Below, piece by piece: positions 28,155 through 57,155 of a stretch of DNA of 64,000 bases; position 1 is the first letter of the stretch; every line of letters starts with the position of its first letter. The DNA comes from an uncultured Clostridia bacterium (GTDB lineage: Bacteria; Bacillota; Clostridia; TANB77; CAG-508). The stretch is from NCBI GenBank assembly GCA_944392425.1, contig CALXWM010000001.1:23589-87588 (forward strand), given 5' to 3'. Under the pieces are notes generated by a model, which did not search any database, had not been told where the DNA came from, and saw only the letters and a list, made by a program, of their open reading frames with translations. Both the position numbers and the translations under genes were made by a program.

Positions 28155-29543
28155 ATGAGTAAAATTAAAGATAAAATTTATGATTTTAAAGATAGGTTAA
28201 GAGATAGGAAGATGCTTACTTTGGTTGTTACTTTAGTTGCAATCATAGTTGTGCTTGGAGTTGTTATTTTTAAAAAGCAATTAGAGTATAGGGGATTAGC
28301 AGAAAACAGTTACAATAACGCATTTTATCAATTGGTTGAATATGTTAATCAAACAGAAGTATTGCTAGCAAAATCAACGATTACAAATAGCAGTAAACAT
28401 GGTGCAGAAACCTTAACAAATATTTGGAGAAATTCTGGTTTAGCAGAAACTTATTTAGCAAGACTTCCAATAGGAACACAGGAACTTGAGCAAGCACAAA
28501 AATTTTTGAATCAAGTTTCAGATTATAGTTATACATTGGCAAATAAAACAATTGGAGGAGAAGACTTAAGCCAAGAAGATTTAGATAATTTAACAAGTTT
28601 GCATCAATACTGTGGATCACTAAAGGACACTTTAAATCAACTAGAAATTGATTTGTATTCCGGTAACATTAAATGGGGAGAACTAGAAAAAGCCGGAGGA
28701 GAAGCTTTAACTCAAGAAGCAAGTAATTTATCTCAAAGTAGCTTTGGAAGTATGGTAGAAAATTTACATGAATATGCTGGTTTAATTTATGATGGAGCTT
28801 TTTCAAACCATATGACAAATCCTGAAAGAGTTGGACTTACAGGAGATGAAATAGATGAAACAAAAGCAATGGAAATAGCAAAAGATTTTATAGGAAATAA
28901 TAGAATTACAGAAATGACTTCTAATGGTCAAAGTCAAAATGGAAATATTGAATGTTATAGTTTTACGGCAAAAGTAGGAGAAAAAGAAATATTTACAATA
29001 GCCATTTCTAAAAAAGGTGGACATGTAGTATTTATGAATTCAAACAGAGATATAGCAAATGAATCTATTTCACCAGAAGATACTGTTGCAAAAGGCAAAG
29101 AATTCCTTGAAAGCAAAGAATTTAAAAATATGAAATCAACATATTACATGAACAATGGTGGCGTATTAACTGTGAACTATGCGTATGAACAAGATGGAAT
29201 TACTATGTATCCAGATTTAGTTAAAGTAAAAATAGCATTAGATAATTGTGAGGTATTAGGAATTGAGTCTACAGGATATTTAAATTGCCATAGAGATACT
29301 AGAGAAGTATCAGAAACAAAAATTACTTTAGAAGAGGCTAGAAGTAAAGTTAACCAAAACTTGAATGTTAGTTCATCAGGATTAGCAGTTATACCAACAG
29401 AGTGGGGCACAGAGGTACTTTGCTATGAATTTAAAGGAAATACTGCGGACAATGATTTTATAGTGTATATAAATGCTGAAACAGGTGAAGAAGAAGATAT
29501 TTTGATGATAATAAATACACCAGAGGGAACATTGACGGAGTAA
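28155..29543 (+). CDS. ypeB: Germination protein YpeB (PepSY-domain protein)
   Basis: N-terminal TM, YpeB-like N-region (YNNAFYQLVEYVNQ), C-terminal PepSY repeats. RBS GAGGT before the ATG at 28155. Confidence 0.75.
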   Translation: MSKIKDKIYDFKDRLRDRKMLTLVVTLVAIIVVLGVVIFKKQLEYRGLAENSYNNAFYQLVEYVNQTEVLLAKSTITNSSKHGAETLTNIWRNSGLAETYLARLPIGTQELEQAQKFLNQVSDYSYTLANKTIGGEDLSQEDLDNLTSLHQYCGSLKDTLNQLEIDLYSGNIKWGELEKAGGEALTQEASNLSQSSFGSMVENLHEYAGLIYDGAFSNHMTNPERVGLTGDEIDETKAMEIAKDFIGNNRITEMTSNGQSQNGNIECYSFTAKVGEKEIFTIAISKKGGHVVFMNSNRDIANESISPEDTVAKGKEFLESKEFKNMKSTYYMNNGGVLTVNYAYEQDGITMYPDLVKVKIALDNCEVLGIESTGYLNCHRDTREVSETKITLEEARSKVNQNLNVSSSGLAVIPTEWGTEVLCYEFKGNTADNDFIVYINAETGEEEDILMIINTPEGTLTE

Positions 29544-29574
29544 TGTGTCAGTAGGGACGCTCCTGTTTGACACA
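29544..29574. repeat. GGGACG-loop hairpin H1
   Basis: TGTGTCA-GTAGGGACGCTCCTGTT-TGACACA. 24/28 identical to 50471-50497. Confidence 0.6.
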
Positions 29575-32908: not shown

Positions 32909-32940
32909 AGCTGTTTTGTGGCACCTATCCCAAAACAGCT
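32909..32940. terminator. Inverted-repeat hairpin downstream of yqeK
   Basis: AGCTGTTTTG-TGGCACCTATCC-CAAAACAGCT. No T-run, so it may be structural rather than a canonical terminator. Confidence 0.35.
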
Positions 32941-32970
32941 AAAATGTAATTGCAAAAATAAAATAAAAAA

Positions 32971-32997
32971 ATATATAATTAAGGAGTAAATTCTAAT
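32971..32997. repeat. Left copy of a ~30-bp direct repeat bracketing the second Rpn gene
   Basis: ATATATAATTAAGGAGTAAATTCTAAT, repeated at 34333-34369 with an 8-bp insertion. Confidence 0.6.
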
Positions 32998-33020
32998 ATT
33001 TGTCATTTTTTGTCATATCT

Positions 33021-33096
33021 TGTCGAAAAAAGTCGACGAAAAAGTGAAATAAATTTGTCAAAATATATTGACATAAAAAATTAAAAAATGTAAAAT
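33021..33096 (+). promoter_or_regulatory. Second copy of the Spo0A-box-like tandem motif plus sigma-A promoter module
   Basis: TGTCGAAAAAAGTCGACGAAAAA at 33021-33043. TTGACA 33068-33073, 17 bp, TGTAAAAT 33089-33096. Confidence 0.5.
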
Positions 33097-33409
33097 ATAA
33101 CCATAAATTTTAATCAAGAAATTAATTTCAAAGTTAATTTATTCTATATTTTTTCAATAAGACAAAAATCATTTTAAAAGGAGGTGAACTTTTAAGCGAA
33201 GGACAAAAAATTAATTGTAAAAGATAAAATTTATAATATACTAAAATTTGTATCAAATAATTTCGGTCGACAAGTTTATTTATTTTAATTCAATATATTT
33301 TATATCTATGTTATATCAAATATGTAGAAACAAGAAAAATAAAAATAAACAAAAATAAAAAGTAGTTGAAAAATCGTAATATATTTGATACAATAGAAAC
33401 GGAGAACAT

Positions 33410-34225: not shown

Positions 34226-34332
34226 AATGGCAGATGATCAAATATGCCAGATATTAAATATATCAACAGAAGAATTAAAAAAGCTGATTAATGACTAAAG
34301 GTGTTTTTGAATTGCAATTTAGATAAAAAGAA

Positions 34333-34369
34333 TATATAATTAAGAAAAATTTAAGGAGTAAATTCTAAT
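34333..34369. repeat. Right copy of the direct repeat, followed by a (TA)8-9 microsatellite at 34399-34415
   Basis: ATATATAATTAAG-AAAAATTT-AAGGAGTAAATTCTAAT. AAGGAG plus ATG opens a 19-codon ORF that runs through the TA tract. Confidence 0.55.
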
Positions 34370-34553
34370 GACAAAAATCGCTGAAAGCCTTGGGGCTGTA
34401 TATATATATATATATCGTAGGATTTAACAAAGTAAATTTATGTGAACATAGAGAAAAAACTATGCTTTTTAGACGTACTAAAATTGTCTAATCGGCATAA
34501 TTTTTTTTGTGAAAAATAAGAATTTTAAGAAAACAGGAGGAAATTTTAAGTCT

Positions 34554-35879: not shown

Positions 35880-35904
35880 AATAAATACATTTGCACATAA
35901 AAAA

Positions 35905-35941
35905 GCGGAATATGGTCATTGCTTTATTGCCGTTTTTTTTA
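35905..35941 (+). terminator. Rho-independent terminator
   Basis: GCGGAAT...ATTGCCG followed by TTTTTTTT. Confidence 0.55.
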
Positions 35942-36116
35942 TACATAAGAATGTTTATGAAAAATAACTAACTTTGTCAAATTTTATCGAAATAACTAGG
36001 CTAATTAATTGTACTCAAAATCTTGACGAAACATCATTAAAATAGTATTATAAAGGAGTGACGATGATTTAATAAAAAGAGAAGGAACAGTATCAAAAGT
36101 AATAGTATTAGACAGA

Positions 36117-36476
36117 TTGAACAAAAGAAAAATAATATATAATATAAATGAAATAATATTAGAAATATATAAAACATTAAAAAATACAGAAGAAAAAGAA
36201 ATAATAGAAAATTACATAAGATCTTCATTAACAGAACTTATAAATAATGCACAACTAGATGAAGTTATAAAGAAAATAAATAAAAATGAAGGAGGAGAGA
36301 ATAGTATGTTAAGACAAACTATAATAGAAATGATTGAAGATGGAAAAGAATCTGGCATAAGCCAAGTAGCAATTAATATGTTGAAACAAAAACATAAAAA
36401 AGAAGAAATACAAAAATGTACGGGCTTAAGTTATGCTAAAATAACAAAGTTAGAAAAATCATTACAAAATGCATAA
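36117..36476 (+). CDS. Stand-alone Rpn-family C-terminal (DUF4351-like) domain protein: candidate RpnS-like small protein or gene remnant
   Basis: The C-terminus GKESGISQVAINMLKQKHKKEEIQKCTGLSYAKITKLEKSL matches the terminal helix of the two Rpn paralogs. Internal Met at 36306. Upstream: TGTCAAATTTTATCGAAA motifs, TTGACG, 17 bp, TATTAT. Confidence 0.5.
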   Translation: MNKRKIIYNINEIILEIYKTLKNTEEKEIIENYIRSSLTELINNAQLDEVIKKINKNEGGENSMLRQTIIEMIEDGKESGISQVAINMLKQKHKKEEIQKCTGLSYAKITKLEKSLQNA

Positions 36477-36696
36477 AAATCTTTCTATAAAATTTCCCTA
36501 AAACTAATGAAATTTGAAAATATATATGATATAATAAAAATGCCATTTATTTTAAACTGCATTAATCACAATGCAAAATTAAACAAAATGGCATTTGCTA
36601 CTTTTTAAAACATAGAAAAATATTTAATTTTAGCTATATTTTAAAAGTTTCCATTAAAATATGTTTATGCATATTTAACAGAGTGGAGGATGTTAA

Positions 36697-37578
36697 ATGA
36701 GTTTTAAGGATTACTATAATGTACTTGGACTAAATTCGAATAAAGTAACGCTAGATGAAATAAAATTTGCATATAGGGAACAAGCAAAAAAGTACCATCC
36801 AGATATGCATGCAGGAGATAGCGTACTTGAAGAAAAATTCAAAGAAATAAATGAAGCATATAGAATTTTATCAGACCCTAAGTCAAGAAAAAGATATGAT
36901 AGAAATTGGTTTATATACACAGAAAGAAAAAAGAGACTACAAAATAAAGATAGAGAAGTAAAAAAATCTTTTAAAGAAAAAATGATTGATATATTATTTG
37001 GAATGACTATACCAAAAGATCAAACTTCAAAAAAAGTTAAAGAACCTATAAATGGTGAAAACATAGAGACAGAAGTTGATGTTAATGTTGTGGAAGCTTT
37101 TAATGGTGTTTCAAAAAAACTAAAATTATTAGCTGTAGACGGAAAAACAAAAACCTTTAACTTAAATATTCCAGAAGGAGTACAAGATGGAGATAAAATT
37201 AGATTTATTGGTCAAGGAAAGCCTGGAAAAAATAATGGTGATAGAGGGGATTTGCTAGTTAAAGTAAAAATCACCAATACAAAAGAGTTTAAATTAGTTG
37301 GGGCAGATATTTATACCGAAATTTCAATATCTCCATGGCAAGCAGCATTAGGAACAAAATTAAATTTGCAGTCCATAGATGGTGAAATTTCATTAGTGGT
37401 TCCAAAAGGAACAGAAAGTGGAGAAAAATTTACTATAAAAGGAAAAGGATATAAATTTGGTAGAGGAAATAGAGGCAATTTTTATATTATTACTAAAATA
37501 GTAGTTCCTAAAAAATTAACAGAAAAGCAGTTGGAACTTTATAATGAATTAAAAGAAATTGATGAAAAAATATCTTAA
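36697..37578 (+). CDS. DnaJ-domain protein (CbpA-like: J-domain plus DnaJ C-terminal domains, no zinc finger)
   Basis: J-domain with HPD (YHPDMH). Two DnaJ_C beta-domains (GDKIRFIGQG..GDRGDLLVKVKI). Confidence 0.75.
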   Translation: MSFKDYYNVLGLNSNKVTLDEIKFAYREQAKKYHPDMHAGDSVLEEKFKEINEAYRILSDPKSRKRYDRNWFIYTERKKRLQNKDREVKKSFKEKMIDILFGMTIPKDQTSKKVKEPINGENIETEVDVNVVEAFNGVSKKLKLLAVDGKTKTFNLNIPEGVQDGDKIRFIGQGKPGKNNGDRGDLLVKVKITNTKEFKLVGADIYTEISISPWQAALGTKLNLQSIDGEISLVVPKGTESGEKFTIKGKGYKFGRGNRGNFYIITKIVVPKKLTEKQLELYNELKEIDEKIS

Positions 37579-38640: not shown

Positions 38641-40755
38641 ATGGGAAGTTCGTTTAGTGAATTTATGAAAAAGAATTTAAAATATATAATATTTGCGTTA
38701 GTATTATGGGCAATAGGCGAAATCTTTTTAGTTGCGCCTATTGCTTTAAGCATTAGCCAGAGCTATGTTGATGGATTATTCGATATAGCTCTTTTTATCG
38801 AAGCTTTAGTTGAAAATATAGTATCATTCTCATCAATTGGTAAAGTATTCACAAGTGAGGCAATTGGAGCATTTGGTAGCTCAACTTTGTGGTATACATT
38901 AATTGTTGCTTTGGCAGTAGGTATAGGAGCGTTTAAAAATAGAAAAAAGACAAAATATCAAAATATAGAACATGGATCAAGCGATTGGTGCCAAGGTGGA
39001 GAACAATATAGGGTTTTGAGTAGAAATTCTGGGTTACTTTTAGCTCAAAATCATTATTTACCACTAAATAAATTAGGAAATATAAACGTATTAATTGTCG
39101 GTGGTTCTGGTTCTGGTAAATCTTCAAGTTACACTATTCCAAATGCACATCAAATGCTTGGTTCATATGTATTTACAGACCCTAAGGGTGAAATATATGA
39201 TACAACAGCAGGCTTTTTACAGAAAAATGGATATGAAATAAAAATATTAAATTTAGTTAATCCAACAAGTAGTGATAGTTACAACCCATTACAGCACATT
39301 CAAAATGAAATAGATGTAGACGTTATAGCAAATACAATAGTAAAAGGACAGAAGGCAGAAGGAACGGCAACAGACCCATATTGGGACAATATGGCTGAAA
39401 TTTTGCTTAAAGCTCTTATTTATTATATTATTGCTACAAGACCACCAGAAGAACAAAACTTAGCAAGCTGTGCAGAACTAGTTAGAGCTGCAAATAATAA
39501 TGGTGGAAGCAACTTACTTACAGAACTCATGAGCCAGTTACCTTATGACCATCCAGCAAGAATGAACTACAAATCTGTTGAAATAGCATCAGAAAAAACA
39601 TATAGCTCAATTTTAAGTACATTGCAATCAAAACTTGGTAAATTTGACTCAAAGGAAATAGCAGATGTAACTTCAACAAATACAATAGATTTTGTTGACA
39701 TAGCAACTAAGAAAACAGCTTTATATGTTGTATCATCAGATACACATAGTGCATATGACTTTTTACTTACAATATTCTTCTCACAAATGATACAACAGTT
39801 ATATGATTTTGCAGATAAAAATGGTGGTAAATTACCAATTCGAACGTTCTTTATACTTGATGAGTTTGCAAACATAGGTCAAGTACCAGACTTCGATAAA
39901 AAGATATCAACAAGTAGAAGTAGAGGAATTTCATTTAGTGTTATATTACAGAACTTAGATCAATTAAAAGCAATATATGAAAAGTCTTATGAAACAATTA
40001 TAGGTAACTGTGATACTCACGTATTTTTGGGAAGTAACTCGTATGCAACAGTTGAATATTTTTCAAAGGAATTGGGAGAGAAAACAATTACTCATAATAG
40101 CAAATCGGTTAATAGAAATAATGTAGATGTAAGAACAGGATTTAGTGAATCAGATCAAATTATGGCAAGAGCTTTAATGACACCTGATGAACTTAGAAGA
40201 ATGGATAATAATGATTGTATTATCTTTGAAAAAGGATTAAAACCAATAAAAGCTAAGAAGTTTTGGTATTTTAAAACTCCAATGCTTAAAGATTTTAATG
40301 CAAATAGAATTGACCATAATGATTATGAATGTCAAGAAAGAGGAAACTGGAGAAAATACAATCCATATAATCCTTATACGGGTAATGAGAATGTAAATGA
40401 GCAAAGCAAAGATGTTAAGATTGAATCTTTGGATGACCTGTTTGAAGATGCTAAACCAGTAGAGCCAGTAAGTGATGTTCAGCAAAATTCTGGAATTCAA
40501 GGATTGCAAGGCACATCAGCAGTTTCAAATAACGGGTTTAATGCAGATGTAATTCCAAATGCAGGACCAAGTTTTGCATCAGTACCAAATAATCAGCCTT
40601 TGAATAATGGTTCAAGTGTTGAGAATCAGCCAACTAACATTCTTCCGGGATTTGAAGATGAAGCTACAAAACAAATGCAAGATACATCAGATGATGAAAT
40701 AGATATTCAAAAAGAATTAGAAGCAAAATTTGACGAATTGTTTGGAAGTGATTAA
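38641..40755 (+). CDS. Type IV secretion coupling protein (VirD4/TraG/TraD family)
   Basis: Two N-terminal TM helices, Walker A GGSGSGKSS, and the family signature FILDEFANIG...SFSVILQNLDQL. Acidic disordered C-tail. Confidence 0.8.
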   Translation: MGSSFSEFMKKNLKYIIFALVLWAIGEIFLVAPIALSISQSYVDGLFDIALFIEALVENIVSFSSIGKVFTSEAIGAFGSSTLWYTLIVALAVGIGAFKNRKKTKYQNIEHGSSDWCQGGEQYRVLSRNSGLLLAQNHYLPLNKLGNINVLIVGGSGSGKSSSYTIPNAHQMLGSYVFTDPKGEIYDTTAGFLQKNGYEIKILNLVNPTSSDSYNPLQHIQNEIDVDVIANTIVKGQKAEGTATDPYWDNMAEILLKALIYYIIATRPPEEQNLASCAELVRAANNNGGSNLLTELMSQLPYDHPARMNYKSVEIASEKTYSSILSTLQSKLGKFDSKEIADVTSTNTIDFVDIATKKTALYVVSSDTHSAYDFLLTIFFSQMIQQLYDFADKNGGKLPIRTFFILDEFANIGQVPDFDKKISTSRSRGISFSVILQNLDQLKAIYEKSYETIIGNCDTHVFLGSNSYATVEYFSKELGEKTITHNSKSVNRNNVDVRTGFSESDQIMARALMTPDELRRMDNNDCIIFEKGLKPIKAKKFWYFKTPMLKDFNANRIDHNDYECQERGNWRKYNPYNPYTGNENVNEQSKDVKIESLDDLFEDAKPVEPVSDVQQNSGIQGLQGTSAVSNNGFNADVIPNAGPSFASVPNNQPLNNGSSVENQPTNILPGFEDEATKQMQDTSDDEIDIQKELEAKFDELFGSD

Positions 40756-42302: not shown

Positions 42303-42431
42303 TTCTAATAAATTTTTAAAAGTTACAATTCACAGTTAGATTTTTTATAAATATAATATGAACCGTGAATTGCAATATGCAGGAGCTTTTATAAAGAAAT
42401 AATTATAAAATTAATTGAAAGGATGAACCAA

Positions 42432-43355
42432 ATGAAAACAGCATTTTTATTTCCCGGTCAAGGAAGTCAATTTACAGGAATGGGAAAAGATTTTTATGAT
42501 AAATTTAGAGAGGCAAAAGAAGTATATGATTTAGCAAATAAAGTAACAGAAATATCAGTTAAAGAATTATGTTTTGATGGGAGCGAAGATGAGCTAAAAG
42601 AAACAAAAAATGCTCAACTTGCAATTGCCACAACCTCACTCGCAATACTAGCAGTTATAGATAAATTGAACATTAAAGCAGAATTTGCAGCAGGATTAAG
42701 CCTTGGAGAATACGTTGCATTAGTATATGGAGGCTTTCTAAAATTAGAAGATTGTTTTAAACTTCTAAAACAAAGAAGTTATTATATGCAAAATTTAGTA
42801 CCAAATAAAGAATATGCAATGTCTGCTGTTATTGGCTTAGATTCTAGTAAAATTGAAGAAATTTGCACAAAACATGAAGCAAATGGAGAATTTGTAGTAC
42901 CAGCAAATTATAACTACAGTATGCAAACAGTAATATCAGGAGAAGCTAAGGCAATAGAAAGTGTTTCTCAAGAATTAAAAGACGCCGGTGCTAAAAGAGT
43001 AATACCACTTAAAACATCAGGACCATTCCATACAAAAGCACTAGAAAAGGCTAGCAAAGAATTTTATAAAGATTTACAAAAAGTAGAGTTCAAAACAGGA
43101 AATGGCGTAAATGTAATAAAAAACTTAGATGGAAACATATATAAAGCAGGAGATAATTTTGCAGAAATATTATCTAAACATATTATAAGTCCTGTAAGAT
43201 TTGATAAAGCTTTAAACATATTAAAAAATGAAAAAGCAGATACATTTATAGAAATTGGACCGGGCAAATCAATGACAGGATTTATAAACAAAGAAAAATT
43301 AGAAGGTTTAGCTTTGAATGTACAAAAAGTAGAGGATTTAGAAAAATTAAAATAA
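42432..43355 (+). CDS. fabD: Malonyl CoA-ACP transacylase
   Basis: FLFPGQGSQ and active-site GLSLGEY. Confidence 0.9.
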   Translation: MKTAFLFPGQGSQFTGMGKDFYDKFREAKEVYDLANKVTEISVKELCFDGSEDELKETKNAQLAIATTSLAILAVIDKLNIKAEFAAGLSLGEYVALVYGGFLKLEDCFKLLKQRSYYMQNLVPNKEYAMSAVIGLDSSKIEEICTKHEANGEFVVPANYNYSMQTVISGEAKAIESVSQELKDAGAKRVIPLKTSGPFHTKALEKASKEFYKDLQKVEFKTGNGVNVIKNLDGNIYKAGDNFAEILSKHIISPVRFDKALNILKNEKADTFIEIGPGKSMTGFINKEKLEGLALNVQKVEDLEKLK

Positions 43356-43418
43356 TTTTACGTTTGGGACGGTTCTTTTTGTAAAATATTTTACGATGGG
43401 GACGGACCAAAACGAAAA
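43356..43418. repeat. GGGACGG-loop hairpins H2 and H3 in the fabG leader
   Basis: TTTTAC-GTTTGGGACGGTTCTTTTT-GTAAAA (43356-43386) and TTTTAC-GATGGGGACGGACCAAAAC-GAAAA (43389-43418). Confidence 0.6.
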
Positions 43419-43437
43419 AAAAGAAAGGAATTATAAA

Positions 43438-44175
43438 ATGGAAGAAAATAAAGTTGCGTTAATTACAGGTGGAACAAGAGGAATAGGTAAGGCTATAGCT
43501 AAAAAGTTTGCTGAAAATGGTTATAATTTAGTTATAAATTATGTTTCAGAGAATACGGATTTAGGAAAATTAAAAAATGATATAAATAGTAAAAATGAGA
43601 TATTATTTGTAAGAGCAAATGTTGGAGATTTTGCATCTTGCGAAGAATTAGTAAAACAAGCAATAGATAAGTTTGGAAAAATAGATGTATTAATTAACAA
43701 TGCAGGAATTACAAGAGATAATCTGATTATGAGAATGAAAGAAGAAGATTTTGACAATGTAATTAATACAAATTTAAAAGGAACATTTAATGTTACAAAA
43801 AATGTAGTTCCATATATGATGAAAAAAAGAAGCGGGAAAATAGTTAATGTATCATCAGTTGTTGGATTAAGCGGAAATGCTGGTCAATGCAATTATGCAG
43901 CTTCAAAAGCAGGTATAATAGGATTTACAAAAAGCATAGCTAAGGAATTAGCAAGTAGAAACATATTAGCAAACTGCGTAGCACCAGGCTTTATAGATAC
44001 AGACATGACAGAAGTTTTAAATGATAGTGTAAAAGAAAATATAAACAATCAAATACCATTAAAAAGAATGGGAACTGCTGAAGAAATAGCAAAAGCTGTT
44101 TACTTTTTAGCAGGAGAAGATAATACATACATAACAGGTCAAGTTTTAAATATAGATGGCGGAATGTTAATGTAA
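43438..44175 (+). CDS. fabG: 3-oxoacyl-ACP reductase
   Basis: SDR motifs TGGTRGIGKA and YAASKAG. Start at the ATG with RBS AAAGGAA. The track ORF begins upstream, within the repeat. Confidence 0.9.
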   Translation: MEENKVALITGGTRGIGKAIAKKFAENGYNLVINYVSENTDLGKLKNDINSKNEILFVRANVGDFASCEELVKQAIDKFGKIDVLINNAGITRDNLIMRMKEEDFDNVINTNLKGTFNVTKNVVPYMMKKRSGKIVNVSSVVGLSGNAGQCNYAASKAGIIGFTKSIAKELASRNILANCVAPGFIDTDMTEVLNDSVKENINNQIPLKRMGTAEEIAKAVYFLAGEDNTYITGQVLNIDGGMLM

Positions 44176-44176
44176 A

Positions 44177-44290
44177 TTTTACGTTGGGGACGGTCCTTTT
44201 TGTAAAATATTTTACGATGGGGACGGACCAAAATGTAAAATAATACTAAAAATTTGATTTTTAAGAAAAAGGACCGTCCCAAACGTAAAA
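44177..44290. repeat. GGGACGG-loop hairpins H4 and H5 plus inverted partial copy H6 in the fabF leader
   Basis: H4 44177-44207, H5 44210-44240, and reverse copy AAAAAGGACCGTCCCAAACGTAAAA 44266-44290. 44181-44201 and 44266-44290 form a 21-bp inverted repeat with 1 mismatch. Confidence 0.6.
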
Positions 44291-44306
44291 AGAAAGGAAA
44301 ATTAAA

Positions 44307-45545
44307 ATGGACAGAAGAGTTGTAGTTACAGGAATGGGAGCAATTACTCCTATAGGAAACAATGTAGAGGAATATTGGAAAGGATTGCAAGAAGGTAAAT
44401 GTGGTATTGATACTATTACTACATTTGATACTTCTGACTTTAAAGTAAAATTAGCAGGAGAAGTTAAAAATTATAATCCTGAAGAATATTTTGATAAAAG
44501 GTCAGCTAGAAGATTAGACAAATTTGCTCAATTTGCAATGATAGCAGCAAGAGAAGCTATGAAAGATAGCAAAATGACAAAAGAAAATACTGATTTTGAA
44601 AGAGTTGGTGTTTTTATAGGTTCTGGTATGGGTGGATTAGATACAATTGAAAAAGAATTAAATGTATGCTTTGAAAAAGGATATGATAAAATTTCACCTA
44701 TGTTTATACCTATGGTTATTTCAAATATGGCTACTGGAAATGTTGCAATTGATTTAGGATTAAAAGGAGAATCTTTTTCTATAGCTACTGCTTGTGCAAG
44801 TGCAACTCATTCAATTGGAGAAGCTTATAGAGCTATAAAACATGGTTACCAAGATGCTGTATTTACGGGAGGAACAGAAGCTTCAATAACTAAATCTGGT
44901 CTAGCAGGATTTACAAATATTAAGGCTTTAACTCAAACTACAGATAAAAATAGAGCAAGTATTCCTTTTGATAAAGAAAGAAGCGGATTTGTAATGGGAG
45001 AAGGAGCTGGCGTTCTAGTATTAGAAGAATTAGAACATGCTAAGAAAAGAGGAGCAAAAATATATGCTGAAATAGTTGGATATGGTGCTTCTTCAGATGC
45101 ATACCATATTACATCTCCTGCACCTGGTGGAGAAGGTGGAGCCAGAGCAATGGTTAATGCAATTAAAGATGCAGGAATTGAACCTAAGGATATTACATAT
45201 ATAAATGCTCACGGAACATCAACACATCTAAATGATTCTTGCGAGACTTCTGCTATAAAAACAGCTTTGGGCGAGAGTAGTAAAAATGTAATGGTAAGCT
45301 CAACAAAAGGAAATACAGGACATTTACTTGGAGCAGCAGGAGCTGTTGAAGCAATTGCTTGTGTAAAAGCAGTTGAAGATGATTTTGTACCACCTACAAT
45401 TAATTACAAAGTTTCTGATGAAGAATGTGATTTAGATATAGTACCTAATAAAGGAAGAAATACAAAAGTTGAATATGCTATGTCAAATTCTTTAGGATTT
45501 GGTGGACATAACAGTTCAATAATTTTTAAAAAATTTGAAGACTAA
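44307..45545 (+). CDS. fabF: 3-oxoacyl-ACP synthase II
   Basis: KAS I/II fold with active Cys (ATACAS), HGTST and GHLLGAAG motifs. Confidence 0.9.
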   Translation: MDRRVVVTGMGAITPIGNNVEEYWKGLQEGKCGIDTITTFDTSDFKVKLAGEVKNYNPEEYFDKRSARRLDKFAQFAMIAAREAMKDSKMTKENTDFERVGVFIGSGMGGLDTIEKELNVCFEKGYDKISPMFIPMVISNMATGNVAIDLGLKGESFSIATACASATHSIGEAYRAIKHGYQDAVFTGGTEASITKSGLAGFTNIKALTQTTDKNRASIPFDKERSGFVMGEGAGVLVLEELEHAKKRGAKIYAEIVGYGASSDAYHITSPAPGGEGGARAMVNAIKDAGIEPKDITYINAHGTSTHLNDSCETSAIKTALGESSKNVMVSSTKGNTGHLLGAAGAVEAIACVKAVEDDFVPPTINYKVSDEECDLDIVPNKGRNTKVEYAMSNSLGFGGHNSSIIFKKFED

Positions 45546-45646
45546 TAATGTTCAAGAACATATATTAAAGCAAAAATAAAAATCAAAGCTGTAAATTGCA
45601 TTAATAAAGCGGTTAAATTTATAAAAAAGAAAGGATGTTAAATTTA

Positions 45647-46102
45647 ATGGAATACAAAGATATTAAAGAAATAGTTAAAGATATGGGAGAGTCTAAAATT
45701 GATGAATTAAAAATAGAATTTCCTGATGGAACTAAAATAAGTATGAAAAAAAATGACCAAAAAGTTGTGTATAAGGCTGAACCAGAAGTACATGAGGTGG
45801 TAATTCCACAAACTTCAACAGTAAGTACTATTGTGAATGCTAACTCTGAAAATAAAGTAGAAGAAAACTACAAAGAAATAAAGGCTCCTATGGTAGGAAC
45901 ATTTTACAGCAAATCATCTCCAACAGCAAAACCTTTTGTAAGTGTTGGCGACAAAGTAAAAAAAGGAGATGTTGTTTGTATAATTGAGGCTATGAAGCTT
46001 ATGAATGAAATAGAAAGTGAATTTGATGGCGAAATAGTTGAAATTTGTAAAAAAGACGAAGATATGTGCGAATATGGAGAATGTTTATTTAAGATTAAAT
46101 AA
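45647..46102 (+). CDS. accB: Biotin carboxyl carrier protein of acetyl-CoA carboxylase
   Basis: Biotinyl-lysine motif IEAMKLMNEI. Alternative start at 45635. Confidence 0.85.
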   Translation: MEYKDIKEIVKDMGESKIDELKIEFPDGTKISMKKNDQKVVYKAEPEVHEVVIPQTSTVSTIVNANSENKVEENYKEIKAPMVGTFYSKSSPTAKPFVSVGDKVKKGDVVCIIEAMKLMNEIESEFDGEIVEICKKDEDMCEYGECLFKIK

Positions 46103-46173
46103 TTTTATTTCACAATATATATTCTTCCAAATAATATTGTGAAACTTAATCTAAAATTAGAAAGGGTAAAGAA

Positions 46174-46596
46174 ATGTTAGATATTAATGGAATTATGGAA
46201 ATAATACCACAAAGAGCACCATTTTTGATGATTGATAAAGTTGAAGAATATGTACCCGGAGAAAGTGCAGTTGCATATAAAAATGTATGTATAAATGAAC
46301 CTCACTTTGCAGGTCATTTTCCAGGAAACCCTATTATGCCGGGGGTATTGATAGTTGAAGCATTGGCTCAAACTGGAGCAGTTGCCATTCTATCTAAAGA
46401 AGAAAATAAAGGTAAAAATGCTCTTTTTGGTGGAATAGATAAGCTAAGATTTAAAAAGCAAGTTGTTCCTGGAGATACTTTAAAGTTAGAAGTAAAAATA
46501 ATTAAACAAAAAGGACCAATAGGAATAGGTGAAGCTATAGCAACAGTTGACGGAAAAGTTGCATGTAAGGGAGAACTTACTTTTGCAATTGTTTAA
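46174..46596 (+). CDS. fabZ: 3-hydroxyacyl-ACP dehydratase
   Basis: Hotdog fold with [12 protein letters not shown]. Confidence 0.9.
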
Positions 46597-46646
46597 GCTG
46601 TGAATTGCAACTAAAATTGAATTAAATTTTAAAAGAAGGAGTTTAA

Positions 46647-47975
46647 ATGATACGTAAAATATTAATTGCTAATAGAGGAGAAATTGCAGTAAGAATAATC
46701 AGAGCTTGTAGAGAAATGGGAATTGCAACAGTTGCTGTTTATTCTGAAGCAGACAAAAATGCTTTGCATGTGAAATTAGCTGACCAAGCTGTATGTATTG
46801 GTCCAGCTCCATCACAAAAAAGTTATTTAAATGTAAAAGCTATATTAGAGGCTTGTTGCCTTACAGGTGCAGATAGTATTCATCCTGGATATGGCTTTTT
46901 ATCTGAAAATGTTTCATTTGCAAAAATGTGTAGTGAGATGGGCATTAATTATATAGGACCTTCATATGAGTTAATTGAGCTAATGGGAAACAAATCTAAA
47001 GCAAAAGAAACAATGAAGAAAGCTGGTGTTCCAGTTGTTGAAGGCTCAGAAGGAAATGTAGAATCACTTCAAGGAGCAAAAGATATTGCCAATAAAATTG
47101 GCTACCCAGTAATAATGAAAGCCGTAAGTGGTGGTGGCGGAAAAGGTATAAGAATAGCAAATAGTGAAGAAGAACTTATTAGATATTATGATGTAATAAG
47201 AGCCGAAGCCAAATCAGCATTTAATGATGACAGTATCTATATAGAAAAATACATAAAAAATCCTAGACACATAGAAATTCAAGTAATTGCAGATAAACAC
47301 GGAAATGTAGCACATTTAGGTGATAGAGACTGTACAGTACAAAGAAAAAATCAAAAAATGCTTGAAGAGAGTCCATCAGATTACATAGATGAAAAATTAA
47401 GGCAAAAGATGGAAAAAGTTTCAGTAAAAGCAATAGAAAAAATAGGATACACAAATGCTGGAACAATAGAATATTTGGTAGACAAAGAAGGCAATTTTTA
47501 CTTCATGGAAATGAATACTAGACTACAAGTCGAGCATCCTGTAACAGAGTTGGTTACTGGTGTTGACTTAGTTAAAGAACAAATAAATATAGCATCAGGA
47601 AAAAAACTTTCAAAAGAAGTAATGAATTTACACATAAAAGGTCATAGTATTGAATGTAGAATAAATGCTGAAAATCCAGATAAAAACTTTATGCCTTGTC
47701 CAGGAAAAATAACAGGACTTCATATACCAGGAGGAAATGGCATAAGAGTGGATTCAGCAATTTATCAAGACTATATAATACCACCAAATTATGACTCAAT
47801 GATAGCAAAACTAATTGTTCATGGTAAAGACCGTGAAGAATGTATTAATAAAATGAAGAGTGCATTAGGTGAATTTGTAATAGAAGGTATAACAACAAAT
47901 ATTGATTTCTTGTACAAAATACTAGAGAATCCTGAGTTTATAAAGAATGATTATGATACATCTTTTATAAAATAA
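46647..47975 (+). CDS. accC: Acetyl-CoA carboxylase biotin carboxylase subunit
   Basis: ATP-grasp biotin carboxylase (KILIANRGEIAVRIIRA, EMNTRLQVEHPVTE). Confidence 0.9.
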   Translation: MIRKILIANRGEIAVRIIRACREMGIATVAVYSEADKNALHVKLADQAVCIGPAPSQKSYLNVKAILEACCLTGADSIHPGYGFLSENVSFAKMCSEMGINYIGPSYELIELMGNKSKAKETMKKAGVPVVEGSEGNVESLQGAKDIANKIGYPVIMKAVSGGGGKGIRIANSEEELIRYYDVIRAEAKSAFNDDSIYIEKYIKNPRHIEIQVIADKHGNVAHLGDRDCTVQRKNQKMLEESPSDYIDEKLRQKMEKVSVKAIEKIGYTNAGTIEYLVDKEGNFYFMEMNTRLQVEHPVTELVTGVDLVKEQINIASGKKLSKEVMNLHIKGHSIECRINAENPDKNFMPCPGKITGLHIPGGNGIRVDSAIYQDYIIPPNYDSMIAKLIVHGKDREECINKMKSALGEFVIEGITTNIDFLYKILENPEFIKNDYDTSFIK

Positions 47976-48046
47976 AGTTATTTTCTACTTAAGCTTCAAT
48001 ATATGTTCTGAAGCTTTTAAAAACTATTATAATGAGAGGAAAAACG

Positions 48047-48889
48047 ATGGTTATTGATAAAATTAAAAAGGTTACAGTTACTGACACAAAAGCCAACACA
48101 AAAGCATCAGATATGATGGTTGGAAAATGGATAAAATGTGATAATTGCAAAGAAATTTTATATAAAGAAGATGTAAGAAAAAATTATAGCGTATGTCCTA
48201 ATTGTGGTAAGCATTTTAGATTATCTTCAAGAAGAAGAATAGTGCAAATAATTGATGAAGGCACATTTGAAGAGCTAAATGCAGATTTACACACAACAGA
48301 CCCAATTAAATTTGAAGGATATTTACAAAAAATAAAATCACTTGAAGAAAAGACTAAAATAAAAGAGGCTGTTAAGACTGGAATTGGAAAAATAAATGGT
48401 ATAAATGTTGCAATAGGAGTAATGGACGCTAACTTTATGATGGGAAGTATGGGAGAAGTTGTAGGTGAAAAAATAACAAGACTTATAGAAACAGCCATAG
48501 AAAAACATTTACCAGTTATATTGTTTTGTGCTTCAGGCGGAGCAAGAATGCAAGAAGGTATGGTATCTTTAATGCAAATGGCAAAAACATCAGCAGTTCT
48601 TTCAAAATTAAATAAAGCAGGTTTGCTTTACATAAGTGTATTTACAGATCCAACAACAGGAGGAGTTACTGCAAGTTTTGCTAGTTTAGGTGATATTATT
48701 TTAGCAGAACCTGGGGCATTAATAGGATTTGCAGGTCCAAGAGTTATTGAACAAACTATAAATCAAAAATTGCCTGAAGGATTTCAAAGAGCAGAATTCT
48801 TATTAGAGCATGGATTTGTAGATAGAATTGTTGAAAGAAAAAATATGAAAAACGAGTTATACAAAATATTAAAGATACATAATTATTAA
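48047..48889 (+). CDS. accD: Acetyl-CoA carboxylase carboxyltransferase beta subunit
   Basis: N-terminal zinc ribbon CDNC...CPNC plus the carboxyltransferase domain. Confidence 0.9.
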
Positions 48890-48904
48890 AGAAAGGAAAA
48901 TAAA

Positions 48905-49699
48905 ATGGCAAACAAAATAGAAGAATGGGATAGAGTTCTAGAAGCAAGAAAGCCAGAAAGACCTAAAGCATTAGATTACATTAACTACATATTTACCGAC
49001 TTTATGGAAATGCATGGTGATAGATATTTTGGAGATGACAAAGCAATAATTGGAGGAATAGGCTTTTTAAATAATATTCCAGTAACAGTTATTGGTGAAC
49101 AAAAAGGAAAATCTACAAAAGAAAATATGGAAAGAAATTTCGGAATGCCTAATCCAGAAGGATATAGAAAAGCATTAAGACTTATGAAACAAGCAGAAAA
49201 GTTTAATAGACCTATAATTACTTTTATAGATACGCCTGGTGCATATCCTGGACTTGGTGCAGAAGAAAGAGGTCAAGGTGAGGCAATTGCAAAAAATCTT
49301 TTAGAAATGTCTAAACTAGAAGTACCAATAATTTGTGTTGTAATAGGAGAAGGCTCAAGTGGAGGAGCACTCGCAATTGGTGTTGGAGATAAAATATTAA
49401 TGCTAGAAAATTCAATTTATTCAGTATTGTCGCCAGAAGGTTTCGCAAGTATTTTGTATAAAGATTCAAGCCTATACAAAAAAGCTGCAAAAGAAATGAA
49501 AATTACAGCAAAAGATTTGAAGAAGCTAGGTATAGTTGATGAAATAATAAAAGAAGATGATATTTTAGAAAATACTAAAAAAGCAATTGCTAAAGATTTA
49601 AAAGAGCTATTAAGCTTAGATAAAAATAAGCTAGTAGAAAATAGATATCAAAAATATAGAAATATAGGAAAGGGTGAAGAAAATGATATTGAAGGATAA
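48905..49699 (+). CDS. accA: Acetyl-CoA carboxylase carboxyltransferase alpha subunit
   Basis: [10 protein letters not shown] and [10 protein letters not shown] motifs. Confidence 0.9.
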
Positions 49700-50450
49700 G
49701 GTTATTTTAGTAATGGGATTAAGAAATAAGTGGAGTATTTCTTGGGGTGTAATAAGAAAAGCTTATGAAAATGGAGCAAAAGTATTATATACATATAATG
49801 ATGGTGACCAAGAAAAAATGGATAAACTTACAGAAGAATTAAAAGGTGCTAAAGGTTACAAATGTGATGTTTCAAACGATGAAGAAATAGAAAAATGTTT
49901 TTCACAAATTAAGAAAGATTTTGGAAAATTAGATGGAATATTACATAGTATTGCTCATGCATATACAGATGATTTAAGAAATGATTTCATATTAACTTCA
50001 AGAGATGGATATTCACATGCAATGGATGTAAGTAGTTATTCATTAGTAGCAATTTGTAGATATGCAATGCAATTAGATATGTTAAATGAGAATGCAAGTA
50101 TAGTAGCTCTTACATACTATGGTTCAGAAAAATCAATAGAAGGATATAATGTTATGGGAGCTGCAAAAGCAGCATTAGAGGCTTCTGTAAGATATTTAGC
50201 AAAAGACTTAGGTAAAAAAGGTATGAGAATAAATACTATATCTGCAGGACCTATCAAAACTTTATCAGCAAAAGGTATAAAAGACTTTAATTCAATACTA
50301 GATGTTGTTGAAGATAGAGCACCATTACATAGAAATGTAACAATAGATGATGTTGGTAATGTTGCAACATTCTTATTTAGTGATATGGCATCAGCTATAA
50401 CTGGTGAAATAATACATGTTGATTCAGGATTCTCATCAGTAGGTGTGTAA
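49683..50450 (+). CDS. fabI: Enoyl-ACP reductase (NADH), FabI type
   Basis: [22 protein letters not shown] matches the FabI N-terminus. Tyr/Lys catalytic region present. RBS AAGGGTG before 49683. Confidence 0.85.
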
Positions 50451-50470
50451 TATCAATAGTGTGTCAATAG

Positions 50471-50532
50471 TGTCAATAGGGACGCTCATTTTTGACATAA
50501 AAATTGTCAATGGGGACGGTTCTATTTGACAA
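50471..50532. repeat. GGGACG-loop hairpins H7 and H8 just past fabI, preceded by TCAATAGTG direct repeats
   Basis: TGTCAA-TAGGGACGCTCATTT-TTGACA (50471-50497) and TTGTCAA-TGGGGACGGTTCTAT-TTGACAA (50504-50532). TCAATAGTG occurs 2.5 times at 50452-50478. Confidence 0.6.
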
Positions 50533-50558
50533 TATTAATAAAAATTAATAACTAAAAA

Positions 50559-50620
50559 AGCATCTGAATGAACTCAATTGGAAAAAGTAGAGTTCAAATA
50601 GGTGCTTTTTATTTTTTTTA
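50559..50620 (+). terminator. Terminator of the fab/acc operon
   Basis: Imperfect hairpin AGCATCTGAATGAACTC...GAGTTCAAATAGGTGCT followed by TTTTTATTTTTTTT. Confidence 0.5.
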
Positions 50621-51575
50621 TTTAATAGAAAAAAATAATTAAATAAAAATAATTAAATAAAAATAATTAAATAAATAATTAATTAAAAACAATAAAAAAA
50701 TTAAAATAATAAAAAAATAAATAAAAAAAATAAAAAATAAAATAATTAAAAATAAATAATTAATAAAAATAAATAATTAATAAAAATAAATAATTAATAA
50801 TAAATAAATTAAATTATTAAATATAAAAATTAAATAAGAAAATTAAAGAATCTTACTAATTAAAATAATAATTAATAAATAGAAAATATTTAAAATAAAA
50901 AATTAAAAATTAATAATTAATTTTTTAATCTATAAAAAAGAAATTGTCAAATAGTCTAATTACTTTTTAAAAAATACATTAATTTAAATTAATAATTAAA
51001 AGGAAAAATAAATTAATTACAAAATAAAACAAATAATTGTGTACAACAAAAAAATTAGAAAAATCAAAAATACTTAAGGAATTAACCATTTGAAAGGATT
51101 TTTTTTATAAAAAACTCACAAAAGTATAAACAAAAATTGTAAACATAATATTGAAAAATGGAATAAAAATATATAAAAACCATTAGTAAAAATAATAAGA
51201 AAAATCAATAAAAAAGAATAAAATATCAGATGTGACTAAAAGACAAAATTTAAAATTAATGTTTATAATAAAAAATAATATTAATTTTATATAATAAAGC
51301 TCTTGCGAAAATCTGTTTGATATGATATAAATATATATAATTAGTTAATTAAATAATAAAGATAAATTAATTTATAAAAAATAATAAATTAAAAGATAAA
51401 TAATAAAAAATAAATAAATTAAAAATAAATAAATTAAAAATAAATAAATTAAGAATAAATAAATTATAATAAATAAATAATAATTAAATTAGTTAATAAA
51501 ATAATAAATTATTAATTTTAAAAAGCTAAAATAAATTAATTATTAATAAAAAAATAATTAAAGAAAGGATAAATA
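50621..51575. repeat. ~1-kb non-coding AT-rich tract with tandem arrays (for example 50621-50830, 51340-51540)
   Basis: No ORFs. 14-17 bp units AAAAATAATTAAAT and AAATAAATAAATTAAAA repeated 3-4 times. Same motif family as 7509-9863 and 52617-52730. Confidence 0.7.
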
Positions 51576-55777: not shown

Positions 55778-57155
55778 CAGGATAAAGACATGAAAAATTT
55801 TTTCATCGTCTGTATCCATTACAATTACTTGATTAAGAGATAATTGTTGTCTTGAAATTACGTAGTATTTTAAAGATTTCAATTGTCTCTTTTTCTACAT
55901 TTCTTGATATATCTTTTCTTATTCTTTTTAGGCTTTTATTTTTTATCTTTTTTACTTCATTTAATATTGTTAAACAGAACTTTTTTATTATTTGCAAATT
56001 ATATAATGCCTTCTTATTTACCGTCGTATTACTGTCACATTTAAAGGTAAAGTCCATTTGCCAATGTAATTTATTCTCCACATTCCAATGTTTTCTTATT
56101 GCATTTGAAAATTCTGCTGTATTTAACAATAAGCTTGAAATGTAATATCTTTTTTCTTCTACTTTACTTCCATCTGCTTTTTCTATGGTCTTTTTTACTA
56201 AGCCTATACTTTTTAATCCTTCCCATTCCTTATATTCTGCATACCATTTTACATCCTCTGTTTGATAATATTCATATGTTATTATTCCACTATGACTTTT
56301 TTCTCTGGTTAGTAAATATCCTCCTTCATAGCCTGATTGTATTAGTAGCAGTTTATCTTCATCAAAGTAATCTTCTACATCTTGATAAAAATTACCATGG
56401 TTTCTTTTTAAAGCTACACAATAGTCTCCTTTTTTAGAGATTACTGCTTTTATATTCTCCTTTTGCGTATTCAATGCATCCCATGTGCATATTGCTCCTT
56501 TTAAATCTAACCTTTTTATTATTTCTGGTATTCCTGTTATTTCATTTGTTTTTTCTTCTATTAGTTCTTGCCCTATGCACATATTTAATTTGTCTGAATA
56601 TACATTTAAAACATTTAATGGCTTTACTTCTTCTGTTATATTTGCTTTCTTTCTTGCACTTCCTTGGTCAACTTTTCCATCAAATGAAAATATGTCTTTA
56701 AATGTTTTATCTTCCATAAATTGTATTTCTTTTATGAAGTCGACAAATATTTTATTTAATTCTTGGCTATCTATTATGCTTATTACTCTTTCGTAAGTTT
56801 TAGCAGATGGAATTCCTCCAGTTAGTTTTAAAAATGTTTTTAAAAATTCTTTTTCATCTTTAGCATAATCTTCTATTTCTTCCCATTCATTACAATCTGC
56901 TAAAACTGCTAGAATTACTACAACAACTATATCCCAAATTTTATATGTGATTTTGCCTTTTTGTCTCTCATCTTTTAACATCATCGATTTTTCCTTCAAT
57001 TCTTTTAATTTACTTATTTCTATTTCTTTTATATTCATTATCTTTTGCTCCGTTTCGATGATATTATACCGTATTTTTTGATATTTGACTACTACTTTTT
57101 ATTGACTTTTAAACATTTATTAGACTTTCTAAAATTTTTTCATGTCTTTATCCTG
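55778..57155 (-). mobile_element. ISAs1-family insertion sequence (about 1.38 kb) with ~25-bp terminal inverted repeats
   Basis: Left inverted repeat CAGGATAAAGACATGAAAAATTTT (55778-55802). Right inverted repeat AAAATTTTTTCATGTCTTTATCCTG (57131-57155), the reverse complement of the left. A single transposase ORF lies inside. Confidence 0.8.
55833..57038 (-). CDS. ISAs1-family DDE transposase
   Basis: C-terminal HWNVENKLHWQMDFTFKCD matches the ISAs1/IS4-like HWxIEN..HW..DVxFxED signature. Plus-strand ORFs 55852-56796 are antisense low-complexity noise. Confidence 0.8.
   Translation of the reverse strand: MNIKEIEISKLKELKEKSMMLKDERQKGKITYKIWDIVVVVILAVLADCNEWEEIEDYAKDEKEFLKTFLKLTGGIPSAKTYERVISIIDSQELNKIFVDFIKEIQFMEDKTFKDIFSFDGKVDQGSARKKANITEEVKPLNVLNVYSDKLNMCIGQELIEEKTNEITGIPEIIKRLDLKGAICTWDALNTQKENIKAVISKKGDYCVALKRNHGNFYQDVEDYFDEDKLLLIQSGYEGGYLLTREKSHSGIITYEYYQTEDVKWYAEYKEWEGLKSIGLVKKTIEKADGSKVEEKRYYISSLLLNTAEFSNAIRKHWNVENKLHWQMDFTFKCDSNTTVNKKALYNLQIIKKFCLTILNEVKKIKNKSLKRIRKDISRNVEKETIEIFKILRNFKTTIIS

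Follow-up and report, generated by a model that had tools for sequence, protein, structure and literature searches.

GGGACGG hairpins in the fab operon of an uncultured Clostridia bacterium probably belong to a lineage-specific REP- or MITE-like repeat family

The stretch of DNA considered here (the window) comprises 64,000 nucleotides of an uncultured Clostridia bacterium (GenBank assembly GCA_944392425.1, contig CALXWM010000001.1) and has a G+C content of 27.5%. At the fab operon that it carries, birA-like, fabH, fabD, fabG, fabF, accB, fabZ, accC, accD, accA and fabI genes all lie on the plus strand (accA was named without a family search). An earlier note on this DNA had described eight short hairpins with a GGGACGG core, at 29544-29574, 43356-43386, 43389-43418, 44177-44207, 44210-44240, 44266-44290 (inverted), 50471-50497 and 50504-50532, and all eight were found there. 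The motif GGGACG(G/C) occurs eight times in the window against 0.43 expected, a count that was reached in none of 100 shuffles. We built a covariance model, R1, from 110 copies of the element, mostly from relatives but including the window copies. With filters off, its scan of the window returned the same eight sites at 33-50 bits. The next best match scored 18 bits, and therefore the 64 kb hold no further copies and the count of eight is complete.

Seven of the eight copies lie within or directly after the fab operon. The remaining one, a single class-B unit (TGTGTCA...GGGACGC...TGACACA) on the plus strand at 29542..29574 (38.6 bits with the covariance model), overlaps the last 2 nt, in the stop codon, of a ypeB-like gene that ends at 29543 and matches YpeB in Pfam. 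In the fabD-fabG spacer, H1 (43354..43386, plus strand, 45.2 bits), a class-A T-variant (GGGACGGTTC), directly follows the fabD stop codon, and H2 (43387..43419, plus strand, 37.7 bits), a class-A A-variant (GGGACGGACCAAAAC), abuts the fabG Shine-Dalgarno sequence, the two forming a tandem with a 33-bp period. Between fabG and fabF, H4 (44175..44207, plus strand, 50.4 bits), again a class-A T-variant, lies directly 3' of the fabG stop codon; it is the first unit of a 63-nt tandem doublet that is inserted here in the window strain only. The second unit of this doublet is H5 (44208..44240, plus strand, 40.2 bits), a class-A A-variant whose 3' arm (AATGTAAAA) falls on a direct repeat of the sequence around the fabG stop codon, AATGTAAA. 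H6, an inverted class-A unit (44260..44292, minus strand, 39.2 bits), abuts the fabF Shine-Dalgarno sequence. Together these three form a composite '+ + -' cluster, assigned to neither strand, at 44175..44292, in which H4 is predicted by RNA folding to pair with H6 and to enclose H5. The long helix that had been proposed here folds as claimed (RNA, -45.2 kcal/mol, z = -5.8) and ends 1-3 nt before the fabF Shine-Dalgarno sequence. Downstream of the fabI stop codon lie two class-B units in tandem, H7 (50467..50499, plus strand, 33.0 bits; GTGTCAATAGGGACGCTCA...TGACAT), which is preceded by a partial duplicate of its own left arm at about 50459-50467, and H8 (50501..50533, plus strand, 40.1 bits; TTGTCAATGGGGACGGTTCTATTTGACAA), upstream of the intrinsic terminator of the operon. 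This terminator, at 50553-50617, is a strong one, and about 1 kb of very A/T-rich, low-complexity repetitive spacer (AAATAAATAATTAA-type units, 50620-51570) separates it from the next gene; relatives have similar tracts of other lengths.

The unit is an imperfect palindrome of 31-33 nt with an A/T-rich outer stem of 7-8 bp, a wobble-rich or mismatched middle and a conserved apical core, GGGAC-G-GTCC. The outer stems vary by sub-family and stay complementary (TTTTACG/CGTAAAA, TGTCAA/TTGACA, TTTTCAG/CGAAAA). Class A follows the consensus TTTTACG-(A/T)T(G/T)G-GGAC-G-GTCC-TTTT-CGTAAAA, of which a perfectly palindromic version, TTTTACGTTGGGGACGGTCCCCAACGTAAAA, is present at two related loci (L076 and L046). 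In class B, the arms TGTGTCAA...TTGACACA flank GGGACG(C/T/G), and other arm versions are TTTTCAG...CGAAAA, ACCCAA...TTGGGT and TTTCA...TGAAA. The earlier note had described a loop of 15-19 nt. Its conserved tip stands, but the loop is partly paired: an inner stem GGGGA/UCCUU with G.U pairs leads up to a CGG tip. Similarly, the stems are self-complementary in general, but not always, as had been stated, since H2 and H6 have imperfect outer arms; H6 folded alone reaches only -1.9 kcal/mol.

Covariation was measured on a 33-column alignment of 110 copies. In this alignment, 81.2% of the cells pair, as compared to 75.1% in shuffles (the observed value was reached in 0 of 500) and 41-57% when the partners were slid, and the pairs 6-30 and 7-29 switch between U-A/G-C and A-U/U-A. 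By these pairing statistics, the proposal that the stems covary while the loop is fixed is real, and the source of the covariation is a handful of sub-families, not a large number of independent events. When only the arms were used for searching, the exact core was found in 88 of 112 matches, and about 11 more counted as one-mismatch variants. The stem is flanked by variable A/T columns, such that the apical GGGACG is the sole invariant block. A tetranucleotide GTAG or CGTC at the 5' foot of the hairpin is absent, CGTC being seen only within the core, when the opposite strand is read. A G.U wobble forms pair 13-23 in 98 of the 110 copies, and in 104 of 110 the G strand folds better than its complement (mean minimum free energy of the G strand, -7.7 kcal/mol). 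Both observations point to selection on one folded single strand. At the gathering threshold, no Rfam family matched the units anywhere in the window. The leaders, the composite element and the unit at 29.5 kb, searched at E values up to 10, returned only spurious matches to plant microRNA precursors, which are explained by the long inverted repeat with its long hairpin, plus Ricks_sRNA10. The latter, a model of a Rickettsia small RNA that matched the composite element, was rejected at 18 bits against a gathering score of 97.

A collection of genomes, one per species, was scanned with the class-A left half as an exact query. This gave 71 loci, 49 of which (62 exact matches) belong to seven related species represented by metagenome-assembled genomes (MAGs) and labelled uncultured Clostridia, Clostridium sp. 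or Bacillota. The other 22 are single matches in unrelated taxa without a unit in their flanks; they were judged to be chance matches because the flanks lack the complementary right arm. The loci were read as 8-kb pieces around the matches, and L-numbers denote these related loci. Low-GC loci totalling 461 kb contain 139 GGGACG cores, nearly all of them inside units, and the unit was seen at least 130 times in the approximately 0.46 Mb sampled from the seven MAG species (17-42 units per MAG within the 8-kb pieces). The covariance model found 122 copies in 380 kb of relatives. The eight units per 64 kb in the window extrapolate to roughly 100 or more sites per genome. As many as 134 of the 139 cores are intergenic, though non-coding bases make up only 15.4% of the sequence (p ~1e-101). 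Both orientations relative to co-directional flanking genes are represented (by unit, 53 are sense and 44 antisense; by homogeneous site, the counts are 17 and 13). The class-A and class-B patterns gave 0 matches when viral contigs were scanned, and neither a BLAST search of the composite element against plasmids nor one of the fabF leader against phages produced a match.

An enrichment of the copies at fab or other lipid genes, as the earlier note had envisaged, was not found. None of 20 sampled flanking genes is a lipid gene according to Pfam. The neighbours include genes for RNase HII, KsgA, FtsW, FtsH, Fe-ADH, an aldolase, FtsZ, a PPIase and Tgt, for an RNA-polymerase protein with Rpb1 domain 5, a U32 peptidase, a UvrD-like helicase and MutS2, and for a penicillin-binding protein, GyrA, RadA and PolC. 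Fab loci account for only two of the 49 clade loci from the genome scan (L019 and L054).

Within the fab operon itself, the units come and go between close relatives. An exact record of the window FabF protein was not found, and its relatives are plentiful. Between fabD and fabG, the genes overlap without a spacer in L125 (FabF 86% identical), 24 nt without a unit separate them in L001 (FabF 91%, DNA about 81%), L123 (FabF 95%) has two class-C units, L004 (FabF 97%) and L054 have one unit, and L019, L122 (FabF 99%) and the window have two. Between fabG and fabF, there is no unit in L001-L003, one '+' class-C unit in L125 and L123, and one '-' class-A unit in L004, L019, L054 and L122. The window has the '-' class-A unit plus the 63-nt '++' doublet H4-H5. 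H6 is thus the sole fabG-fabF unit in the relatives with 97-99% FabF identity, which carry its orthologous copies. After fabI, the window has two units, L001 has one, which is orthologous to H8, and L002, L004 and L054 have none. L001 keeps the operon with short spacers of 24 and 44 nt between fabD and fabG and between fabG and fabF, both free of units, which argues against an element dedicated to this operon. The H4-H5 doublet is missing from L004, L019, L054 and L122, whose FabF proteins are 97-99% identical to that of the window. Its insertion lies directly 3' of the fabG stop codon, between two direct copies of AATGTAAA, the downstream one of which also serves as the 3' arm of the unit. 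The H4-H5 block is a very recent arrival in the window strain, and three fab spacers have been colonised.

These comparisons also bear on two features to which the earlier note had drawn attention. The fabG and fabF leaders had been taken for duplicates of each other, and they are indeed alike. They look duplicated because each carries the same 64-nt '++' tandem doublet. In another genome (L020) this doublet recurs, 94-96% identical, beside a fragment of an RNA-polymerase subunit gene (Pfam RNA_pol_Rpb1_5). The absence of acpP had been linked to the elements between fabG and fabF. A motif search found no acpP in the window, but its absence is unrelated to the units, because fabG and fabF adjoin without acpP in element-free relatives as well. 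A fapR or fabT gene was not seen in the annotated neighbourhood of the operon, with about half of the window's open reading frames (ORFs) unannotated. We also considered whether the element carries its own Shine-Dalgarno sequence (AGAAAGG beside the arm) and rejected this; the motif is found on one side only and always at a real gene start, and the fabF Shine-Dalgarno sequence exists in an element-free relative too.

The arrangement of the units was surveyed at 76 sites in the loci examined. Single units account for 30 sites, '+-' doublets for 23 and '++' doublets for ten; eight sites are '++-' or '+--' (the fabG-fabF cluster of the window among them), two are '+++', one is '++++', two are '+-+' (both in L062), and '-+' does not occur. 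The polarity is strict in that + precedes - (a G-strand copy, then a C-strand copy) at all 31 clearly mixed-orientation sites. The two '+-+' sites were set aside because a palindromic GGGACGTCCC core, which registers on either strand, is taken to account for them. Nine further '+...-' clusters in metagenome contigs have the same order. Tandem units keep a 33-bp period, and '+-' doublets span 62-250 bp. Furthermore, the units form the terminal inverted repeats of long-hairpin miniature inverted-repeat transposable elements (MITEs) of 215-250 bp, in which GGGACGG units at the outer ends enclose a second, inner inverted repeat (CACAATATA...) around a GC-rich core, and whose whole length forms one hairpin (-99 kcal/mol, z = -12). 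Such composite elements lie at L018 5205-5457, L051 559-807, L066 2521-2774, L074 1280-1533, L072 3298-3516, L039 173-398, L049 13-257 and L010 3134-3377. A short form with the same ends, at L077 5666-5803, has only CACAATAT-TTAT-ATATTGTG between them.

Two further observations concern the arrangement of units. Class-B 'stutter' arrays, in which the left arm plus core (TGTCAAYGGGGACGCTCCTTTT) is repeated two to four times with a 22-24-nt period before a single right arm, occur at L010 1185-1263, L013 7319-7401, L072 625-700 and window 50456-50470, and suggest slippage or nested insertion. Of the units that directly adjoin a Shine-Dalgarno sequence (...CGTAAAA-AGAAAGGA-N8-ATG), most are present in the mRNA as the C strand, in about 20 against about five cases by reading and 26 against seven in raw motif counts. 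Examples are found in L004, L017, L018, L019, L024, L033, L050, L054, L061, L066, L072 and others as well as at window 44260-44306. This excess probably follows from the polarity of the doublets with + before -.

We consider it probable, at roughly 0.8, that the hairpins are a lineage-specific, non-autonomous repeat, similar to repetitive extragenic palindromic (REP) sequences and REPINs or to MITEs, which fills the intergenic DNA of a clade of low-GC uncultured Clostridia. The reading first put forward in the earlier note, namely protein-binding RNA or single-stranded DNA hairpins that control or process the fab/acc transcript, does not agree with copies that are scattered genome-wide in either orientation. 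Its alternative, mobile hairpins of a REP/PATE-like family, has support as to the kind of element, since the units are extragenic, palindromic, multi-copy and strain-polymorphic, and it is also backed by the inverted doublets and the MITE ends.

The REP, BIME and REPIN sequences of Proteobacteria (E. coli, Pseudomonas, Stenotrophomonas) are mobilised by RAYT (TnpA-REP) tyrosine HUH transposases. Like these, the Clostridia units are imperfect palindromes of about 30-35 nt that are almost all extragenic, and each genome holds many of them. They stand alone, in tandem clusters or as inverted doublets with a longer hairpin fold, and they lie between cistrons or after stop codons, vary between strains, have lineage-specific variants and show no evident target-site duplication. 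They differ in that no RAYT gene was found in the sequence scanned and in that their hosts are low-GC uncultured Clostridia. Full-text literature searches found no description of REPs in Clostridia, and two REP surveys make no mention of Clostridia, which is not proof of novelty. With bacterial MITEs such as Correia (Neisseria), RUP, BOX and SPRITE (pneumococcus), ERIC/IRU and bcr1 (Bacillus cereus group), the family shares a small size (62-250 bp), a lack of coding sequence, inverted ends whose polarity is fixed and a long-hairpin fold; both kinds lie between genes or inside operons, sometimes beside ribosome-binding sites, and are strain-polymorphic. In contrast to these, the Clostridia end is a self-contained palindrome that stands alone at 30 of the 76 sites and also forms head-to-tail tandems, and neither a consistent target duplication nor a parent insertion sequence with these ends was found in the loci. 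With PATE and other IS200/IS605 derivatives, the units have in common hairpin ends, no evident target duplication, a strand-asymmetric fold and a datable insertion beside an arm-like sequence. Unlike in those, no TnpA or TnpB gene was seen in the Clostridia loci. The ends of IS200/IS605 elements differ from each other and are not inverted copies of one palindrome. A link to this group may serve as a lead. The 5' arms (TTAC, TCAA) may resemble the IS608 cleavage tetranucleotides, but the positions do not correspond, and the likeness was not used.

Several observations weigh against a mobile repeat of this kind. The fabG-fabF spacer is occupied across lineages with FabF identities of 86-99%, and the unit always abuts the fabF Shine-Dalgarno sequence, so that the unit may have a locally useful, exapted role there. 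The core lies on opposite strands of this spacer in different lineages, and the recurrent occupation is compatible with an old insertion and its loss in one lineage, with repeated insertion at a favoured spot, or with a local benefit. Three of the four occupied spacers in the window belong to the fab operon, which has nine of the 45 spacers (nominal p ~0.02, post hoc). The whole-genome copy numbers are extrapolated from 8-kb pieces around matches. REP sequences have GTAG or CGTC at the 5' foot, which the Clostridia unit lacks, its conserved block being the GGGACG tip. Inspection of the flanks of 24 '+-' doublets revealed no consistent target-site duplication; at the sole datable insertion, that of H4-H5, the flanking AATGTAAA repeat overlaps the unit's own arm, and the boundaries of the units are ambiguous because their ends are A/T-rich. 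Finally, no transposase, be it of the HUH/Y1 type or encoded by a unit-flanked gene, was found in about 1 Mb of sequence, a fraction of each genome. Mobility is therefore deduced from polymorphism and architecture. For want of a transposase, a regular target duplication and a GTAG/CGTC foot, we do not file the family as strict REP or as DDE-type MITE.

In this search for a mobilising enzyme, neither a scan of the ORFs in this 1 Mb for HUH/Y motifs nor tblastn with the TnpA proteins of IS200 and IS608 (approximate queries) gave a match. All-against-all clustering of 606 locus ORFs returned orthologues only and no multi-copy gene. The ORFs with units on both sides are fabG, scpA, a gene for a DUF2651 protein and one for a 366-aa protein without a Pfam domain. 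The latter protein has a coiled-coil C-terminus and no sign of being a transposase; its gene lies between a '+' and a '-' unit in two assemblies (L011 2975-4075, minus strand; L096 1035-2135, plus strand). A 567-aa protein was rejected as a transposase, since it is an AMP-binding, acyl-CoA-synthetase-like enzyme. A unit is found at its stop codon or within about 30 nt of it in L045, L069 and L076, and units lie within about 200 nt downstream in L010. The window encodes an ISAs1-like DDE transposase (DDE_Tnp_1_assoc and DDE_Tnp_1, 55833-57038, minus strand) with no GGGACGG unit nearby, and neither this gene nor that of the PDDEXK_2 transposase has a unit within kilobases.

In the mechanism that we regard as most likely, an enzyme acting in trans would recognise the folded G strand and propagate the units. 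For this enzyme, the sequence determinant would be the conserved tip, and the arms would need only to pair, which would account for the covariation of the stems. New units would land preferentially beside sequences that resemble a unit arm, which would explain both the tandems and the junction of H4-H5. In the fab operon, the units would be passengers; if they affect fab expression, this would be a by-product and no dedicated circuit. Such by-products may include an intercistronic barrier to mRNA exonucleases, a site for a double-strand-specific RNase or a structure beside the Shine-Dalgarno sequence. In this context, the REP hairpin between malE and malF of E. coli resembles the fab cluster in being a stable predicted hairpin between two cistrons of one operon, and the predicted fab hairpin could possibly shield the upstream message from 3'-5' exonucleases or be a substrate of a double-strand-specific RNase.

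An unlikely alternative, though one that we would keep in mind, is a Gram-positive REPIN-like system that differs from the proteobacterial ones in recognition of the GGGACG tip, an unusual single-stranded DNA enzyme, lineage-specific stems and some exapted copies. Here, the GGGACG tip would take the place of the GTAG foot, the enzyme might be new or domesticated, and each lineage would keep its own version of the stem in step across all copies. The same orthologous spacer holds class A in the window lineage versus class C in the relatives with 95% and 86% FabF identity. Copies such as the unit that adjoins the fabF ribosome-binding site in most lineages may then be exapted intercistronic structural elements.

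We regard it as improbable that the units are static sites for an abundant host DNA-binding protein (nucleoid-associated, gyrase- or IHF-like) or insulators, which selection would maintain and recombination and slippage, not transposition, would multiply. A palindromic double-stranded site with a conserved asymmetric core, the regular tandem spacing of 33 bp (about three helical turns), the tight filling of intergenic spaces and the negative search for a transposase would all agree with such sites, the 22-24-nt period of the stutter arrays suggests slippage, and gyrase, IHF and Pol I bind REP/BIME elements of E. coli. However, units differ in presence and copy number at orthologous sites between very close strains, they end long-hairpin MITEs with the strict + before - polarity that is typical of element ends, and the G.U asymmetry suggests that selection acts on a single strand and not on duplex DNA.

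A dedicated cis-regulatory element of the fab/acc operon, in which a protein or small ligand binds the GGGACGG loop and sets the translation of fabG and fabF or the processing of the message, is very unlikely and largely refuted by the distribution of the units. What made it attractive is that seven of the eight window copies lie in or just after the operon, that units abut the Shine-Dalgarno sequences of both fabG and fabF, that several lineages have a filled fabG-fabF spacer, and that neither fapR nor fabT was seen among the genes annotated there. Yet the units stand beside unrelated housekeeping genes throughout seven genomes and in either orientation relative to the mRNA, even the strand of the fabG-fabF core differing by lineage. 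L001 has the same operon without units in these two spacers, and a relative with 99% identical FabF does without H4-H5. An operator of the FapR/FabT type was rejected as well, as the sites are not confined to fab or pls genes (two of 49 scan loci are fab) and are absent from the operon spacers of L001-L003.

A guanidine-II (mini-ykkC)-like riboswitch, whose paired ACGR tetraloops would dimerise on the ligand and free the downstream Shine-Dalgarno sequence, is already refuted by context and model search: a class-A unit can be given the form GGG-ACGG-UCC, with ACGG as its tetraloop, and adjacent pairs do lie just upstream of Shine-Dalgarno sequences, but mini-ykkC (RF01068) does not match the fab leaders even at E values up to 10, class-B loops are ACGC or ACGT, units also occur singly, inverted, 3' of stop codons and antisense to genes, and neither a guanidine carboxylase nor an SMR/EmrE-type transporter is encoded, according to Pfam, by the 20 flanking genes sampled.

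Other repeats and genes were noticed along the way. A second repeat family consists of GC-rich, long imperfect palindromes of about 125 nt (AATTGCGTTTTGGCGTCGTT...GCCTAGCCAAAA.CACAATT). Copies lie at window 14793-14925 and 29693-29822, each just 5' of a plus-strand gene start, and on the minus strand of L013 at about 1060-1190. Between the two window copies, one arm changes from GG to AA and the other correspondingly from CC to TT, and there is no Rfam match. The CACAAT-ended element is found in fab spacers as well, as a 35-nt palindrome (TTCACAATATATATTCTTCCAAATAATATTGTGAA) in the accB-fabZ spacer of the window (46102-46174) and in L122, and as GC-rich versions of 126-206 nt at the accB-fabZ place and in the accC-accD spacer in L004 (11706-11833 and 13669-13864) and L123 (4706-4913). 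A third short repeat, CTGTGAATTG(C/T)AA, has two inverted copies separated by 27 nt in the fabH-fabD spacer (42323-42335, minus strand; 42363-42375, plus strand) and occurs singly in the fabZ-accC (46598-46610, plus strand) and fabF-accB spacers (45589-45601, plus strand, two mismatches). At up to one mismatch, all three window copies are in fab spacers, but in relatives the motif is found at non-fab loci too (L021, L049, L059 and L062). It is probably another dispersed element. The region 32885-36697 of the window is a 3.8-kb insertion relative to L001 and L004, in which the HD-domain gene adjoins dnaJ. It holds a PD-(D/E)XK 'transposase' (33410-34225), a weakly Trp-repressor-like ORF and a 456-aa ORF without a Pfam match (34509-35879), for which four other loci have pieces of 71-76% identical DNA. 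A gene for a TraG/VirD4-type type-IV coupling protein (38641-40755) lies between small ORFs of unknown function and the birA-like gene upstream of the fab operon, and this position is kept in L001 and L004.

For these organisms, a tempting lead to a 'fab riboswitch' or a loop-binding regulator, in an operon with neither acpP nor a known repressor, is thus replaced by a documented repeat family, which explains contig breaks and the apparent 'duplicated leaders' and can be masked or modelled when MAGs of these gut Clostridia are annotated. For the study of REPINs and MITEs, it adds a low-GC Gram-positive case in which doublets keep a strict polarity, the tip is conserved and the stem covaries, and for which no partner enzyme was found in the part of each genome that was scanned. 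The occupancy of the spacers marks variation at the level of strains, as it differs among relatives whose FabF proteins are 95-99% identical, and the family as a whole would be a new member of an already known type of element, REP/REPIN- or MITE-like.

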